Shown: positions 1,351 through 9,382 of the stretch, one piece after another
Position numbering within the stretch: position 1 is the stretch's first letter
Layout of the letters: every line of letters starts with the position of its first letter
IMG/VR virus record: IMGVR_UViG_2657245081_000002
Origin: a virus
Taxonomy: Duplodnaviria > Heunggongvirae > Uroviricota > Caudoviricetes
Length of the DNA stretch: 10,461 nt
Strand: one strand, 5' to 3'
Notes under the pieces: model-generated
Databases searched by the model: none
What the model was told of the DNA's origin: nothing
The model's input: only the letters and a program-made list of their open reading frames with translations
Made by a program: the position numbers and the translations under genes

Positions 1351-1600
1351 AGGCGTGGCTTACAGCCGTGTGTCGACTTTTTCCGGGGATTATCTCCGCG
1401 TAACTGACAACAAGGGAAAAACGCACGACGTGCTGACCGGAAGTGATGACGCTCGCCACAGTAACACCTCTCTGGCGTGGGGAGCTGGCGTGCAGTTTAA
1501 CCCGACCGAATCCGTGGCCGTTGATGTCGCTTATGAAGGCTCCGGCAGTGGCAACTGGCGCACTGACGGGTTCATCGTGGGTGTCGGTTATAAGTTCTGA
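1351..1600 (+). CDS. lom: Lom/Ail/PagC-family outer-membrane protein, C-terminal fragment (stop 1598-1600)
   Basis: Translation ...YSRVSTFSGDYLRVTDNKGKTHDVLTGSDDARHSNTSLAWGAGVQFNPTESVAVDVAYEGSGSGNWRTDGFIVGVGYKF ends in the family's terminal aromatic beta-strand and matches lambda Lom with a few substitutions. Confidence 0.85.
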
Positions 1601-1673: not shown

Positions 1674-1957
1674 NNNNNNNNNNAAATCCAGATTAAACAT
1701 CTCATTGCTGATGCTTGATATTGAGCATCTGGCGCGCAGTAAGGGGCTGCGTTGAGATAAGAGCCAGTTCATTACAAATACCAGGATTTAGCCTCGCATT
1801 CGCGGGGCTTTTTATATCTGAATTTCACAGCGCATCTCACGCGCATATTAACGAGAGCCTTTCAGTAAGCGAGCCTGAGAAATGCCGTTATAGGTGGCGA
1901 CCTCTCTCGGGCGGCTTTTCTGTGAGACAGGCTCACTTTCTAAAAGGTAAAGACGCT

Positions 1958-2482
1958 ATGAATAATCATTCAGTTATTCCAGCCTTCGACTTCCGAGAAA
2001 TGGTGCAAGCCAAAAACGGAGAGGTCGTTACCACATCCAGAAAAATTGCCAAGTACTTCGGCAAGCGACACAGTGATGTTCTCAGGAAAATCGAGCAGGT
2101 TAAGGCTGATTGCTCGCGTGAGTTTAGCCAACGCAATTTTGCGTCGGCTGATTATATCGATGAGCAGGGCAAGGTTCGCCCGATGTACAGCCTGACGAAA
2201 GATGGCTGGATCATGGTTGTGATGGGGTTCACCGGGAAAGCTGCTGCGGCAATCAAGGAGAGCTATATCGCAGCATTCAACTGGATGGCAGAACAACTGA
2301 GCCGCCGCATGGCAATTGGCGAAGAAATGCAGCACCGCTACGCCATCAAAGAAACACGCTCAAAGCTGAAAGGTACGATCGGCAGTCGGTTAATGAACGA
2401 ACGGAAGAAAGAGAAGCGTGTCCTGGCTGTCGAGCATGAATACATCTTGCAGGTGACACAGCCTGAACTGCTGATTAATTGA
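1958..2482 (+). CDS. Phage regulatory protein, Rha family (pRha-domain, antirepressor-like)
   Basis: ATG at 1958 preceded by aaaagg-taaaga, a Shine-Dalgarno-like stretch. Translation MNNHSVIPAFDFREMVQAKNGEVVTTSRKIAKYFGKRHSDVLRKIEQV... has the pRha N-terminal signature (TTS..IA..FGKRH..VLR.I). The listed ORF begins at 1715, but the upstream 81 codons have no ribosome-binding site and look non-coding. Confidence 0.6.
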   Translation: MNNHSVIPAFDFREMVQAKNGEVVTTSRKIAKYFGKRHSDVLRKIEQVKADCSREFSQRNFASADYIDEQGKVRPMYSLTKDGWIMVVMGFTGKAAAAIKESYIAAFNWMAEQLSRRMAIGEEMQHRYAIKETRSKLKGTIGSRLMNERKKEKRVLAVEHEYILQVTQPELLIN

Positions 2483-2784
2483 AGATGTCATTACAAAGCC
2501 TATCTACGGGGGGCTTGATAATGGCTTATACCCTGCACGGGATAACTTAACTGATATCCCTTTTAACGGATAAAGGTATTCAAGCCTGACACATCATGCG
2601 CTGTATCGTCGCCGTATTCCCGCATTAACCATGACCGTAGCCCGACGGGGAATTCCTTCTGCGTGAGTGTGCGGGAATAATCAAAAACGATGCACACCGG
2701 GTTATTAACGCGTCAACTGAACGCGGGGTTGCTCTTCATGTCAGCCAGTCCGGTGCAGGGGTAGAAGAAACCGGACGTTATGGT

Positions 2785-3195
2785 TTAGTGTGGAAACATT
2801 TGTGATGTGCTCTGTATGTTTTCAGTAAAGAGTAATGAATTATCAAAGGTATAGTAATATCTTTTTTGTTCGTGGATATTTGTAACCCACCGGAAAACTC
2901 CTGCTTTAGCAAGATTTTCCCTGTATTGCTGAAATGTGATTTCTCTTGATTTCAACCTATCATAGGACGTTTCTATAAGATGCGTGTTTCTTGAGAATTT
3001 AACATTTACAACCTTTTTAAGTCCTTTTATTAACACAGTGTTATCGTTTTCTAACACGATGTGAATATTATCTGTGGCTAGATAGTAAATATAATGTGAG
3101 ACGTTGTGACGTTTTAGTTCAGAATAAAACAATTCACAGTTTAAATCTTTTCGCACTTTATCGAATATTTGTTTAAAAATGGCAACCTGAGCCAT
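2785..3195 (-). CDS. AT-rich prophage cargo ORF, tentatively DUF1398 family (YbcV/YdfO-like)
   Basis: 136 codons from the ATG at 3195, which is preceded by gaagg. The alternative upstream ATG at 3210 would add 5 codons. Visibly lower GC than neighbours. Two-repeat architecture with F..Y...L...GV..Y motifs, e.g. [28 protein letters not shown]. Position just upstream of cos mirrors ybcV next to nohD in DLP12. Family call is from memory and tentative. Confidence 0.4.
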
Positions 3196-3251
3196 TGTAG
3201 TACCTTCCATGTGATATGAGGGGCGTAGTCTGCACGATTATCTAAATTGCT

Positions 3252-3485
3252 TCAATCTGGTCTGATCTGTTTTCTGAGCAATTCAGTAATGTCACTCTTT
3301 TCTTTGTTTGCTTCAGGAGAAACTCTTTTTTCTGAGCACAGTCTCCGGCGGCAGGCTTCAATGACCCAGGCTGAGAAATTCCCGGACCCTTTTTGATCAA
3401 GAGCGATGTTAATTTGTTCAATCATTTGGTTAGGAAAGCGGATGTTGCGGGTTGTTGTTCTGCGGGTTCTGTTCTTCGTTGACAT
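3252..3485 (-). CDS. Small basic protein, possible ribbon-helix-helix DNA-binding protein
   Basis: 77-aa ORF. The N-terminus is Arg/Thr-rich, followed by NIRFPNQMIEQINIALDQKGSGNFSAWVIEACRRRL, which resembles a strand-helix-helix (CopG/Arc-like) pattern. No strong ribosome-binding site. Function inferred from the motif only. Confidence 0.35.
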   Translation of the reverse strand: MSTKNRTRRTTTRNIRFPNQMIEQINIALDQKGSGNFSAWVIEACRRRLCSEKRVSPEANKEKSDITELLRKQIRPD

Positions 3486-3639
3486 GAGGTTGTCCCGTAT
3501 TCAGTGTCGCTGATTTGTATTGTCTGAAGTTGTTTTTACGTTAAGTTGATGCAGATCAATTAATACGATATCTGCGTCATAATTGATTATTTGACGTGGT
3601 TTGATTGCGTAGATGCACGTTGTGACATGCAGATGATAA

Positions 3640-3873
3640 TTATTATCATTTTGCGGGTCCTTTCCGGCGATCCGACAGGTTACGGGGCGGCGACCTCGCG
3701 GGTTTTCGCTATTTATGAAAATTTTCCGGTTTAAGGCATTTCCGTTCTTCTTCGTCGTAACTTAATGTTTTTATTTAAAATACCCCCTGAAAAGAAAGGA
3801 AACGACAGGTGCTGAAAACGAGCTTTTGGGCCTCTGTCGTTTCCTTTCTCTGTTTTTGGCCGTGGAATGAACA
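3640..3873. other. cos: Lambda-type cos site: cosQ, cosN (12-nt cohesive-end sequence gggcggcgacct at 3685-3696) and cosB
   Basis: 3541-3873 is near-identical to the joined right and left ends of lambda as recalled (...ccgacaggttacg | gggcggcgacctcgcgggttttcgctatttatgaaaattttccggtttaagg...), and the Nu1 start follows at 3874. Confidence 0.85.
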
Positions 3874-3919
3874 ATGGAAGTCAACAAAAAGCAGCTGGCT
3901 GACATTTTCGGTGCGAGTA
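3874..3919 (+). CDS. nu1: Terminase small subunit Nu1, first 15 codons (cut by N-run)
   Basis: MEVNKKQLADIFGAS is the lambda Nu1 N-terminus, in the expected position relative to cosB. Confidence 0.85.
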
Positions 3920-3929
3920 NNNNNNNNNN

Positions 3930-5341: not shown

Positions 5342-5418
5342 GCATCCGTAGCTCAGCTGGATAGAGTACTCGGCTACGAACCGAGCGGTCGGAGGTTCGA
5401 ATCCTCCCGGATGCACCA
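5342..5418 (+). tRNA. tRNA-Arg (anticodon ACG), copy 1
   Basis: 77-nt sequence gcatccgtagctcagctggatagagtactcggctACGaaccgagcggtcggaggttcgaatcctcccggatgcacca is the E. coli argQ/Z/Y/V-type tRNA with encoded CCA. Confidence 0.95.
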
Positions 5419-5480: not shown

Positions 5481-5557
5481 GCATCCGTAGCTCAGCTGGA
5501 TAGAGTACTCGGCTACGAACCGAGCGGTCGGAGGTTCGAATCCTCCCGGATGCACCA
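5481..5557 (+). tRNA. tRNA-Arg (anticodon ACG), copy 2
   Basis: Identical 77-nt tRNA sequence, 62 nt after copy 1. Confidence 0.95.
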
Positions 5558-5691
5558 TATTCTACGTACTTTCAGCGATGAAGGTATGGAAGAGGTGGCG
5601 GTAATAACCGCAGGCACCAGGGAGGATAACGTTGCTTTAGCAACGGCCCGAAGGGCGAGCCGCAAGGCGAGTAATCCTCCCGGATGCACCA
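5558..5691 (+). repeat. Inter-tRNA spacer element ending in a copy of the last 19 nt of tRNA-Arg (aatcctcccggatgcacca, 5673-5691)
   Basis: About 115 nt of non-tRNA sequence containing ggataacgttgctttagcaacggcccgaagggcgagccgcaaggcgagt, fused to an exact copy of the tRNA T-stem and acceptor 3' strand plus CCA. It is followed by the same 62-64-nt leader that precedes every tRNA copy. Confidence 0.8.
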
Positions 5692-5755: not shown

Positions 5756-5832
5756 GCATCCGTAGCTCAGCTGGATAGAGTACTCGGCTACGAACCGAGC
5801 GGTCGGAGGTTCGAATCCTCCCGGATGCACCA
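5756..5832 (+). tRNA. tRNA-Arg (anticodon ACG), copy 3
   Basis: Identical 77-nt tRNA sequence. Start-to-start spacing from copy 2 is 275 nt, which matches my recollection of the chromosomal arg tRNA cluster. Confidence 0.95.
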
Positions 5833-8859: not shown

Positions 8860-9169
8860 TCAGAACTTATAACCGACACCCACGATGAAACCGTCAGTGC
8901 GCCAGTCGCCACTGCCGGAGCCTTCATAAGCAATATCAATGGCCACCGATTCGGTCGGGTTAAACTGCACGCCAGCTCCCCACGCCAGAGACGTGTTGCT
9001 GTGGCGACCGTCATCACTTCCGGTCAGCACATCGTGCGTTTTCCCCTTGTTGTCAGTTACGCGGAGATAATCCCCGGAGAAAGTCGACACACGGCTGTAA
9101 GCCACACCCGCCATCGCATACGCGCTGAACCATTCATTCACGCGTACAGACGGCCCCGCCATCACGCTG
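8860..9169 (-). CDS. lom: Lom outer-membrane protein, C-terminal fragment (stop 8860-8862), second allele
   Basis: ...SVMAGPSVRVNEWFSAYAMAGVAYSRVSTFSGDYLRVTDNKGKTHDVLTGSDDGRHSNTSLAWGAGVQFNPTESVAIDIAYEGSGSGDWRTDGFIVGVGYKF matches lambda Lom. It differs from the 1351-1600 copy at 4 residues (A/G, V/I twice, N/D). Confidence 0.85.
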
Positions 9170-9179
9170 NNNNNNNNNN

Positions 9180-9382
9180 GCGGGCAGGGCGATGTCGGTT
9201 TCACCGGGAAGGACCTTTGCACCGAGCAGCGGATTGACCGGATGGCCGGACGTCACCCCGCCGGGGCACACCGAACAGGCCACGCCGGTGGGGGCACCGA
9301 TGCGTACCCCGGCTGAACCCTGGACAATGCTACCGCCATACTGCGTCATGTCGCCCTGACGCGCCGCCGGTTTTCCGCTCAT
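9180..9382 (-). CDS. Rhs protein N-terminal (PAAR-like) domain fragment (start codon 9380-9382)
   Basis: MSGKPAARQGDMTQYGGSIVQGSAGVRIGAPTGVACSVCPGGVTSGHPVNPLLGAKVLPGETDIALP matches the RhsA-type N-terminus. An aagga Shine-Dalgarno sequence lies just upstream on the minus strand. Confidence 0.75.

Follow-up and report, generated by a model that had tools for sequence, protein, structure and literature searches.

The right ends of lambda-type phages carry a pair of small genes that is already known: ynfO/ylcI and ydfO/ybcV/lambdap78 are named and annotated in thousands of genomes, and lambdap78 is non-essential. In the K-12 prophage Qin, ynfO (DUF3950, 77 aa) and ydfO (DUF1398, 136 aa) lie side by side next to nohA (b4533-b1549). 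The order in DLP12 is borD-ybcV-ybcW-ylcI-nohD, and in lambda it is bor - lambdap78 - lambdap79 - ylcI-like ORF - cos, with the ylcI-like ORF left unannotated in RefSeq. Cos function in lambda has been genetically defined as cosQ-cosN-cosB acting with terminase, IHF, and gpFI, and cosmids without the DUF3950 gene are packaged. The late region of lambda also holds bor and lom, which encode outer-membrane proteins; for both, host phenotypes and expression in lysogens are documented.

Published work on the pair itself concerns mainly transcripts. K-12 ydfO was induced 12- to 117-fold by ionic liquid (PMC4077768), ybcV was 10-fold lower in a pdhR mutant (PMC7660256), and the ybcW and ylcI transcripts are convergent and overlapping (PMC12288877). 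An increase of ybcV of >1000-fold was reported when T4 MotB perturbs H-NS repression (PMC7827196), a value confounded by lambda DE3 induction in the same strain. In a CRISPRi map of lambda, lambdap78 was non-essential and its knock-down gave no plaque phenotype (PMC10695390). The NMR solution structure of YdfO (PDB 2HH8) was a structural-genomics target with function unknown. We found no functional study of DUF1398, which agrees with the initial annotation of the stretch analysed here, and the accessible literature reports no phenotype for DUF1398 or DUF3950. We rejected the only published YdfO phenotype, oxidative-stress resistance, as a mix-up of the gene names yfdO and ydfO; this citation is an error that later work should know of.

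Here, we compare these systems with a prophage right end that holds both genes. Our best explanation, held with somewhat better than even confidence, is that the ynfO/ydfO right-end pair forms a leftward moron-type unit consisting of a DNA-binding regulator and a DUF1398 host-physiology effector.

Two known genes lie between Rha and a lambda-type cos site

The window, i.e. the whole stretch of DNA analysed (10,461 nt, IMG/VR virus record IMGVR_UViG_2657245081_000002), consists of 24 fragments joined by 10-N linkers. Checked against the linker positions, its longest contiguous block spans 1684-3919, as initially annotated, and the proposed gene order, with two small ORFs between Rha and a lambda-type cos/Nu1, holds by profile matches and by alignment of cos with lambda (Table 1). 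The ORFs sit exactly where they had been placed: one spans 2785-3210 and encodes 141 aa, and the other spans 3252-3485 and encodes a 77-aa product with a net charge of about +8. They share the minus strand and are read against Nu1 and the lysis genes; strand had not been part of the initial annotation. The Rha gene does not belong to the two-gene unit; it is an optional insert of its own, located upstream of the cassette described below. It is missing in 14 loci, whose homology to the window begins at ~2485, right after the Rha stop codon. An ORF at 2563-2697 on the minus strand, hypothetical in PhiR70_1, matched no family in any profile library, and a search of the whole window with Rfam found tRNAs elsewhere only and no RNA family within the 1684-3919 block.

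Table 1. Features of the pre-cos region, in window coordinates
Feature	Coordinates	Strand	Support
Rha-family regulator gene	1958..2482	+	TIGR02681 E=1.9e-33; PF09669 E=8.9e-29
AT-rich exchangeable mosaic cassette	2746..3323	.	homology end points and GC
DUF1398 gene (orthologue of ybcV / ydfO / lambdap78)	2785..3195 (ORF to 3210)	-	
Spacer between DUF1398 and DUF3950 genes	3196..3251, 56 bp	-	
DUF3950 / YlcI-YnfO family gene, 77 aa, ynfO orthologue	3252..3485	-	
Leader, DUF3950 start codon to cosN	3486..3684	.	
cosN cohesive end, cosB, Nu1 first 15 codons	3685..3919	+	

The suggested assignment of the larger protein to DUF1398 was borne out by a full-length match to PF07166 above the Pfam gathering score (157.9 bits, cut-off 22, E=1.4e-46, profile positions 1-119 of 119). 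Its ATG at 3195 is preceded by GGAAGG with a 7-nt spacer and yields 136 aa, the length annotated by RefSeq. The upstream in-frame ATG at 3210 (141 aa), use of which would shorten the intergenic spacer to 41 bp from the 56 bp measured from ATG 3195, is without a Shine-Dalgarno sequence. The ribosome-binding context thus favors ATG 3195 as the probable start. The smaller protein matched PF13132 (74.8 bits, cut-off 25, E=4.9e-21) and NF041551 (35.7 bits, cut-off 30).

Judged by sequence, the two ORFs are orthologues of Qin ynfO and ydfO, and the pair corresponds to ylcI/ybcV of DLP12 and, in lambda, to the unannotated ORF and lambdap78. Qin is identical to the window in gene order and strands, in the lengths of the genes (234 and 411 bp), in its short spacer, and in the distance of ~390 bp to the Nu1 homologue, and its nucleotide homology to the window is unbroken across 2746-3919. 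At the protein level, the 77-aa product is 96% identical to YnfO and the DUF1398 product 80% identical to YdfO; this DUF1398 allele is nearer to YbcV and lambdap78 (94%). The two loci differ upstream, where the window has the Rha gene and Qin has gnsB/cspI, and Qin is a decayed prophage, whereas the best relatives of the window are complete lambdoid prophages. Lambda agrees with the window at 94% of amino acids in DUF1398, at 96% in the DUF3950 core, and at 96% of nucleotides in the cos frame, and in both lambda and DLP12 the two shared genes run opposite to the late operon, as in the window. However, in lambda and DLP12 the two genes are separated by ybcW/lambdap79 (68 aa, plus strand), and the DUF3950 protein ends in another, shorter tail (64 aa), whereas the window has no such insert and has Rha instead of bor. 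The spacer without ybcW/lambdap79 is the Qin-type junction and occurs in 2184/5426 E. coli genomes.

Across the annotations compared in lambda, O276, Qin, and DLP12, and with 97% nucleotide identity between the window and annotated E. coli prophages, the ynfO/ydfO pair is a standard, widespread component of lambda-type right ends. Its conservation in related prophages, on which the initial annotation had let its proposal depend, is thus high. By contrast, the locus is no fresh candidate for an uncharacterized function, as had been proposed, since the genes are already named (ynfO/ydfO, lambdap78) and the structure is solved. Because the pair is named and carried by lambda and about half of E. 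coli genomes, the finding is an ordinary one. What value remains is that these genes are members of the E. coli y-ome and among the handful of lambda ORFs still without a function.

The cos region at 3466-3919 is identical to the joined lambda ends at 435 of 455 bases (96%). The mature left end, GGGCGGCGACCT, lies at 3685-3696, and the cosN 12-mer is identical to that of lambda. Nu1 starts at 3874, 189 bp after the left end vs. 190 in lambda (where nu1 starts at 191), and is represented by its first 15 codons only (3874-3919), being ended by an N linker; in the best matches, RefSeq has nohD or a terminase small subunit here. Homology and the Nu1 distance together identify a lambda-type cos with Nu1. 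The leader (mean column identity of 96% among the window, lambda, Qin, DLP12, and PhiR70_1) contains an inverted repeat at 3555-3567 / 3575-3587, which by its sequence is a candidate operator. It also contains, at 3655-3661, a cosQ-like GGGTCCT.

The exchangeable cassette ends inside the small gene

The DUF1398 gene had been read as AT-rich, horizontally acquired cargo, and its base composition is indeed foreign, with a GC of 0.321 (GC3 0.314) that is far below the flanks and roughly 8 binomial SD below the mean (Rha, 0.493; window, 0.532). This part of the claim stood, but its extension to a "two-gene cargo" did not. The 77-aa ORF is AT-rich in its tail only (GC 0.36, vs. 0.49 in codons 1-50), and overall GC is 0.32-0.36 within the cassette and 0.49 outside it. 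Homology that spans cos breaks off on its left side at two preferred points, 3323 (21 loci plus lambda and DLP12) and 2746 (13 loci plus Qin). The mosaic junction and GC boundary therefore fall within the small gene, near codon 54 (3323), indicating that the DUF3950 core belongs to the conserved cos frame.

The exchangeable unit consists of DUF1398 and the DUF3950 tail only, together with a 39-bp 3' flank and the 56-bp spacer, and is present, absent, or interrupted by ybcW/lambdap79 among phages. The DUF3950 core (codons 1 to ~54, 3324-3485) and the ~200-bp leader are part of an almost invariant cos-proximal frame. The core is nearly invariant (dN/dS = 0.14), whereas the tails (codons ~55-77, 3252-3323) come in several unrelated versions whose type tracks the neighboring gene. 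This boundary within a small gene, and a DUF3950 core that moves with cos, should be useful to later work.

An architecture survey of 69 viral loci agreed with the pre-cos accessory slot proposed earlier, as architectures vary both there and in the slots of lambda (bor/p78/p79) and DLP12 (borD/ybcV/ybcW/ylcI). DUF3950 adjoins cos in 54/69 loci, and DUF1398 is present in 39/69, with Nu1 99-100% identical. Viral contigs scanned with the single proteins P0311 and P0368 gave no match.

The closeness of DUF3950 to cos could suggest another role, in which the protein binds the leader and modulates cosQ/cosN use or transcription into Nu1, leaving DUF1398 as an unrelated passenger. The gene lies ~200 bp from cosN in the 54 loci that have it, the leader is near-invariant and includes the inverted repeat, a plus-strand promoter-like site at 3622-3649 is directed at Nu1, and the core and cos recombine as a single unit. 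Still, 15/69 loci with 99-100% identical Nu1 lack DUF3950 entirely, and both the defined lambda cos components and cosmid packaging, as established, do without it. The invariance could be explained just as well by the recent spread of one cos module, given a dS of ~0 between the window and Qin in the DUF3950-core/cos segment. We therefore consider a packaging or late-gene role distinctly improbable.

The link between tail and cargo could also reflect a type II toxin-antitoxin or abortive-infection module, with a ribbon-helix-helix (RHH)-like antitoxin-autorepressor and DUF1398 as the toxin. The layout is classical: on a prophage, the gene for a small and basic protein, putatively a DNA binder, precedes that for a larger one. 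Every phage locus with DUF1398 in the survey also has DUF3950 (39/39), the 77-aa tail form is inherited strictly with a directly adjacent DUF1398 (42/42), and the 77-aa protein has a weak PHROG match to HicB-like antitoxins (E=0.007). However, co-occurrence is not obligate, as DUF3950 stands alone in 15/54 loci, and ycgX and the Bacteroidota DUF1398 genes have no DUF3950 partner. Lambda and DLP12 keep 82-95% identical DUF1398 proteins with the 64-aa short-tail DUF3950 and ybcW in between, which argues against neutralization via the tail. Neither protein matched a toxin-antitoxin family in Pfam, and PADLOC gave no match for DUF3950 and one at chance level only for DUF1398 (E=0.016). Clones overexpressing ybcV were viable in an ASKA glycogen screen (PMC2853380), and the lambdap78 knock-down without a plaque phenotype also speaks against a toxin. 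This makes such a module highly improbable in our estimation.

Both genes are under selection

Purifying selection acts on DUF1398 (dN/dS = 0.21, dS up to 0.52), and all distinct copies of the DUF1398 and DUF3950 genes are intact (16/16 and 9/9). The low dN/dS values and intact copies indicate that both ORFs are real genes. DUF1398 occurs in 3010/5426 complete E. coli genomes (~55%). In a confident AF2 model, the window protein shares the fold of the solved family member YdfO, an orphan fold with an internally duplicated alpha2-beta3 unit. Four DUF1398 residues, Y35, W103, Y114, and E125, are invariant. DUF1398 is neither a head nor an envelope protein, and annotations that label it so are errors that later work can now set aside.

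One could still regard both genes as non-functional remnants that hitch-hike beside the essential cos site. They have no known function, are dispensable for plaque formation (PMC10695390), are retained in decaying cryptic prophages, and show no clear promoter in strict or relaxed scans. Against this stand the purifying selection and intact copies just described, the stable fold seen in both the NMR structure and the AF2 model, the conservation of the DUF1398 family across phyla, and the regulated transcripts of the K-12 copies (PMC7660256, PMC4077768, PMC12288877). Taken with the selection data, the idea of mere remnants is hardly credible.

DUF3950 shows a possible likeness to Arc and Mnt

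The small ORF had been called RHH-like, but its family is DUF3950/YlcI-YnfO, and RHH/CopG profiles were unmatched. At E<=10, no Pfam RHH family matched the 77-aa protein or any of 25 family members. A profile search of the PDB with DUF3950 returned no RHH protein, a Foldseek search of its AF2 monomer against the PDB returned no match, and hhalign against a verified Arc sequence gave a non-significant result (probability 1.0%, E=0.054). Within that alignment, the "NIRFP" of DUF3950 falls in register with the Arc beta-strand "NLRWP". The AF2 monomer is extended over residues 1-18, with no strand assigned, and has helices at 19-32 and 34-52 (pLDDT ~85). An RHH character is thus a structural proposal, suggested by the predicted secondary structure and the Arc-like "NIRFP" motif.

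Among the closest comparisons are the Arc/Mnt repressors of phage P22. Like them, DUF3950 is small and has a basic N-terminal segment, an "N-[IL]-R-[FW]-P" motif with two helices after it, and a G-x-x-x-S turn. However, it has no significant sequence or profile match to them, and the beta-strand is not formed in the monomer model. At best, then, DUF3950 may work like the Arc/Mnt repressors, a likeness that does not imply membership.

A leftward accessory unit is the favored reading

Returning to the moron-type unit, we propose that, as for bor, transcription would head leftward from the cos side, in antisense to the late pR' transcript. This orientation points to an accessory unit expressed from the prophage rather than one serving virion production. 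Consistent with a moron, the base composition differs from the flanks, and presence and absence among related phages are observed. For expression from the repressed prophage, the transcripts of the K-12 cryptic-prophage copies offer indirect evidence only. The small, basic DUF3950 protein is a probable DNA binder of the Arc/RHH-like dimeric kind, for which the invariant inverted repeat (3555-3587) is a possible site, and it would regulate transcription of both its own gene and DUF1398 downstream. The soluble DUF1398 protein probably acts on host physiology, through a stress or small-molecule response, and would be dispensable for lytic growth. Most likely, the accessory unit as a whole is non-essential for lytic growth.

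The window pair resembles lambda bor/lom in its late-region site, its expected transcription against or independent of the late genes, its deviating composition, and its lytic dispensability. Unlike for Bor and Lom, neither a signal peptide nor expression in lambda lysogens is documented for DUF1398 or DUF3950, and no promoter or terminator was identified. Strict and relaxed scans of the minus strand for a sigma-70 consensus gave no site of at least 9/12, yielding 8-of-12 matches only, and no intrinsic terminator was found downstream of 2785 on that strand. Co-transcription of the two genes is not universal, because in lambda and DLP12 they are parted by an oppositely oriented gene.

DUF1398 beyond phages and a possible role in conflict

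Outside phages, DUF1398 forms a large family on Bacteroidota chromosomes, with thousands of clusters in non-phage contexts. In the 10 Bacteroidota contexts that we sampled, the neighborhoods were of a stress/xenobiotic type and not defence islands. A redox or oxidative-stress role was suggested by the published YdfO statement and by adjacency to BrxC in one Flavobacterium. We rejected it because the statement is the yfdO/ydfO mix-up, the BrxC neighbor did not reappear in 9 further contexts, and the window protein lacks the CxxC motif conserved among the Bacteroidota proteins. Because the window protein has no CxxC, hints from Bacteroidota contexts may not transfer to it.

A further alternative is that the slot holds a phage-host conflict module, either an anti-defence function or a prophage-encoded defence or superinfection exclusion. 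Conflict-related cargo concentrates in this slot. The neighboring lambdap79/ybcW triggers the Vulcan NADase defence, and Vulcan-escape phages delete lambdap79 via recombination with Qin, which yields the window-type arrangement (bioRxiv 10.64898/2026.09.04.749371). The antisense-to-late orientation is typical of lysogen-expressed loci (PMC7067206), and the gene is kept in 55% of E. coli genomes. On the other side, PADLOC found no match, the accessible literature holds no such phenotype, and Bacteroidota DUF1398 genes are housekeeping-like and chromosomal. Loss of ydfO was seen in one spontaneous phage-resistant mutant of APEC, but as just one of many changes. We judge a dedicated conflict module decidedly unlikely.

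A broader form, in which the DUF3950 regulator and DUF1398 form a lysogen-expressed conflict or stress module, we rate as unlikely. Here, DUF1398 might act as an effector that binds small molecules and either shields the host or counters defence under specific xenobiotic or infection conditions. If true, phage-defence arms races would have shaped where the cassette is found, missing, or interrupted, and whether the Vulcan trigger lambdap79 accompanies it. This would also explain purifying selection on a non-essential gene found in lambda and ~55% of E. coli genomes.

For the favored pairing of a regulator with a DUF1398 effector, gene neighborhoods elsewhere offer a parallel. An AraC/DUF6597 gene lies immediately upstream of DUF1398 in 4/10 Bacteroidota loci, and in E. 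coli the gene directly before ycgX (DUF1398) is bluR, of the MerR type. The regulator-then-DUF1398 layout thus recurs with unrelated regulators. That chromosomal DUF1398 in Bacteroidota often sits directly behind a dedicated regulator gene, in the contexts sampled, is likewise of use to later work.

Genomic context and gene identities

In the 10,461-base window, 24 short fragments are strung together through linkers of 10 N, and the longest fragment carries the genes considered here. Its final 454 bases aligned at 96% identity with the two ends of phage lambda, right joined to left. The ORF list, base composition, and lambda-end alignment bore out the initial annotation, which had placed an AT-rich ORF and a small ORF before cos; to its coordinates we add that both ORFs lie on the minus strand, with Rha, Nu1, and the late operon running the other way. 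The larger ORF had a GC content of 0.321 (GC3 0.314); Rha stood at 0.493 and the window overall at 0.532.

Features of the window, with positions in window coordinates
Feature	Position	Strand	Basis or detail
Lom-like ORF fragment	1355-1600	+	ends in ...TDGFIVGVGYKF
Longest fragment	1684-3919
Rha-family gene	1958-2482	+	mechanical ORF list
Exchangeable cassette	~2746-3323		homology end points
DUF1398 ORF, 141 aa	2785-3210	minus	mechanical ORF list
DUF3950 ORF, 77 aa	3252-3485	minus	mechanical ORF list
13-nt inverted repeat	3555-3567 / 3575-3587		ATCAATTAATACG / CGTCATAATTGAT
Sigma-70-like site	3622-3649	+	GTGACA, 16-nt spacer, TATCAT
Cohesive end GGGCGGCGACCT, identical to lambda	starts 3685		alignment to joined lambda ends
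Nu1 start codon	3874	+	comparison with lambda ends
Chimeric ORF, 206 aa	3874-4494	+	crosses linker 3920-3929
tRNA-Arg(ACG), three identical genes	5342-5418, 5481-5557, 5756-5832	+	one 675-bp fragment
Lom-like ORF fragment	8860-9222	minus	ends in ...TDGFIVGVGYKF

Profile searches agreed with the earlier DUF1398-like call for the larger ORF, which matched the entire Pfam profile (E=1.4e-46; 157.9 bits, cut-off 22). The RHH-like call for the small ORF found no support in profiles: neither the 77-aa protein nor any of the 25 relatives scanned at E<=10 matched an RHH or CopG model. The protein belongs to DUF3950 (E=4.9e-21) and also scored above the cut-off of the NCBIfam YlcI/YnfO model. In PHROGs, the smaller protein fell into phrog_949, of unknown function, and the larger into phrog_413, labelled "head protein." This label and the "putative envelope protein" label of lambdap78 look unfounded, given a family of soluble 130-aa proteins that is chromosomal in Bacteroidota.

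Along its full length, the fragment was 97.3% identical to sequence in complete E. coli chromosomes, where the matching stretch is annotated as Rha, DUF1398, YlcI/YnfO, and nohD within a complete lambdoid prophage. The right end of lambda reads bor, lambdap78 (its DUF1398 gene), lambdap79, and then a YlcI/YnfO ORF that NC_001416 leaves unannotated, whereas the close relative O276 has it annotated. The same module occurs in the K-12 prophages DLP12 (borD-ybcV-ybcW-ylcI-nohD) and Qin (nohA-ynfO-ydfO). The window shares the Qin geometry exactly, in which genes of 234 and 411 bp follow each other on one strand across a short spacer, whereas lambda (47576-48108) and DLP12 hold lambdap79/ybcW between the pair, a gene missing at window 3196-3251. 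Protein identity was 96% to YnfO, 94% to YbcV and lambdap78, and 80% to YdfO, whose NMR structure is solved (PDB 2HH8, deposited as a hypothetical protein). Among 5426 complete E. coli genomes, 3010 carried the DUF1398 gene and 2184 the direct YnfO-to-DUF1398 junction. The initial interpretation was largely right, except that the pair is no fresh candidate: these are known, annotated, structurally solved, and very common lambda/E. coli y-genes.

Homologue lists for these genes are inflated by short copies of the lambda right end, including dozens of slightly different versions in ENA contigs of about 3.4-3.6 kb and GenBank records of 3.3-3.5 kb named "Escherichia phage Lambda" that span the same stretch.

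According to a 2026 preprint, lambdap79 triggers the Vulcan NADase defence, and phages escape by recombining with Qin and so dropping the gene, which leaves them arranged as in the window (bioRxiv 10.64898/2026.09.04.749371). We do not favor the view that the pair itself is a defence or anti-defence module; a PADLOC search of the two proteins found no defence-system relative.

An exchangeable cassette beside a near-invariant cos module

We surveyed 69 viral-contig loci, all with Nu1 at 99-100% identity and no less than 2.5 kb of sequence upstream. In 54 of these, DUF3950 adjoined cos. DUF1398 was present in 39, always with DUF3950, while 15 loci, mostly beside bor, had DUF3950 without it. Six loci held ybcW between the two genes, and six had the full window architecture of Rha, DUF1398, and DUF3950. 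Homology spanning cos stopped at discrete points, namely window 3323 (21 loci, lambda, and DLP12), 2746 (13 loci and Qin), ~2485 (14 loci, which lack Rha), and 1684 (8 loci).

The first of these points is codon 54 of the DUF3950 gene. In agreement with this boundary, GC content steps from 0.49 in codons 1-50, as in the cos frame, to 0.36 in the tail. The first ~50 residues of the protein are almost invariant, and the tails come in unrelated versions: the 77-aa tail occurred only with DUF1398 directly next (42/42), and a 64-aa tail with bor or ybcW next (21/21). Together, the junctions, GC step, and tail linkage delimit an exchangeable AT-rich cassette comprising DUF1398 and the small-gene tail. 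The DUF3950 core and its ~200-bp leader to cosN, with 96% mean column identity across five genomes, are members of the near-invariant cos module. The proposed "two-gene cargo" thus stands for DUF1398 and has to be redrawn for DUF3950, which is cut within the gene. We do not favor a packaging or late-gene role for DUF3950, which its place beside cos might suggest; 15 of the 69 loci lack the gene.

Another accessory slot of the same phages lies between the Q antiterminator and holin, where the closest complete prophages have an nmpC/OmpD-like porin gene in opposite orientation (L001 6085-7182 minus; L004 1-383 minus).

Coding status

Both ORFs are real genes under purifying selection. No reading frame was disrupted among the 16 distinct DUF1398 sequences or the 9 distinct DUF3950 core sequences collected here, and median pairwise dN/dS was 0.21 (dS up to 0.52) and 0.14, respectively. 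We accordingly do not favor the pair as non-functional hitch-hikers of cos. For DUF1398, ribosome-binding context (GGAAGG, 7-nt spacer) preferred ATG 3195 over ATG 3210, giving the 136-aa product used by RefSeq. The lambdap78 annotation (NC_001416 47042-47575; L002 2043-2576) is over-extended to 177 aa, and its true start is most likely an internal ATG that also gives 136 aa.

A possible regulatory unit

The monomer model of the 77-aa protein was of moderate quality (pLDDT 69.5), with an extended basic N-terminus followed by helices at 19-32 and 34-52 (pLDDT about 85); the tail adds a third, weak helix. One chain of an RHH dimer would be expected to look like this, and we infer from the model that the protein may be RHH. 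With hhalign, its "TRNIRFP" was set on the DNA-reading strand "QFNLRWP" of P22 Arc (sequence checked against 1ARQ), at a match probability of 1%. A weak PHROGs match to a HicB-like antitoxin family (E=0.007) could suggest a toxin-antitoxin pair, which we do not favor; the two genes are separable, as the survey and the DUF3950-free copies of DUF1398 illustrate.

Upstream of the DUF3950 start codon, at a distance of 70-100 nt, lies the inverted repeat, whose sequence does not vary among lambda, Qin, DLP12, and PhiR70_1. It could serve as an operator or as an accessory site of cos, for example one of IHF type. What is shown for these genes is their identity, conservation, selection, cassette limits, orientation, and fold, and, from published work, their dispensability. 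Beyond that, our preferred reading is a moron-type accessory unit in which leftward transcription of DUF3950 and DUF1398 would start in the invariant leader next to cos and run antisense to the late transcript. The small basic protein would bind DNA, perhaps at this repeat, and control its own gene and DUF1398, which would in turn act on host physiology. The weak points of this proposal are the unmatched RHH profiles, the splitting of the pair by ybcW in lambda and DLP12, and sequence scans that found no consensus promoter or terminator for the leftward unit. The sigma-70-like site (10/12), just upstream of a cosQ-like GGGTCCT, is aimed at Nu1 and may be due to chance, because such sites were fewer in the fragment than expected from shuffling. 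Neither the window sequence nor related loci pointed to an unusual mechanism.

The wider DUF1398 family

A phmmer search of 1.84 billion representatives returned only 239 relatives of the window DUF1398 protein, many of them fragments. The few full-length ones (25-45% identity) included YcgX, a third K-12 paralogue. The Pfam family extends much further: by way of a Flavobacterium homologue (PF07166, E=1.5e-38), we reached at least 3,964 Bacteroidota clusters with 65-70% identity across genera. Y35, A96, G99, W103, and Y114 are invariant in both branches and E125 nearly so, whereas a CxxC (FCxDCAK) conserved in Bacteroidota is missing from the window protein and the enterobacterial/phage branch.

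All 10 Bacteroidota neighborhoods sampled were chromosomal and non-phage. In four (L092, L093, L095, and L098), a 254-aa AraC/DUF6597 regulator lay directly upstream on the same strand; other neighbors were glyoxalases, an Old-Yellow-Enzyme-type reductase, HxlR/DoxX, BrxC, GNAT, and hydrolases. In E. coli, ycgX follows the MerR-type bluR immediately and on the same strand (L090 5704-7060), with no DUF3950 or cos DNA in its surroundings. These data show that DUF1398 is non-virion, does not require DUF3950, and repeatedly sits behind a dedicated regulator gene, and these regulators come from unrelated families. The gene contexts may also hint, softly, at a stress or small-molecule response.

In the library searched, DUF1398 is mentioned by five papers, which assign it no function. 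In lambda, a CRISPRi essentiality map found lambdap78 non-essential (PMC10695390). Clones overexpressing ybcV were viable with altered glycogen content (PMC2853380). An imidazolium ionic liquid induced K-12 ydfO 12- to 117-fold (PMC4077768), ybcV and ybcW were down about 10-fold in a pdhR mutant (PMC7660256), and RNA-seq described ybcW/ylcI as a convergent "excludon" (PMC12288877). T4 MotB, which perturbs H-NS repression, raised ybcV >1000-fold in BL21(DE3), a value confounded by lambda DE3 induction (PMC7827196). We discarded the oxidative-stress resistance ascribed to YdfO, since the cited Wang et al. 2010 deals with YfdO of CPS-53 and makes no mention of ydfO; the same slip occurs in a second paper (PMC4077768, PMC9181523, PMC3105296). 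The only "phenotype" tied to the family is thus a gene-name error.

Other features of the window

The 206-aa ORF is an artefact that reads the first 15 Nu1 codons through a linker into an unrelated fragment, and several further entries of the ORF list, whose translations contain "XXXX," are likewise chimeras. ARAGORN added an antisense tRNA call (5501-5572) to the three tRNA-Arg genes, which is probably spurious. The two near-identical ORF fragments resemble the C-terminal end of Lom-type outer-membrane proteins. Along with fragments elsewhere that look like terminase and tail genes, they suggest that the window was strung together from multi-copy prophage pieces collapsed in a draft E. coli assembly.
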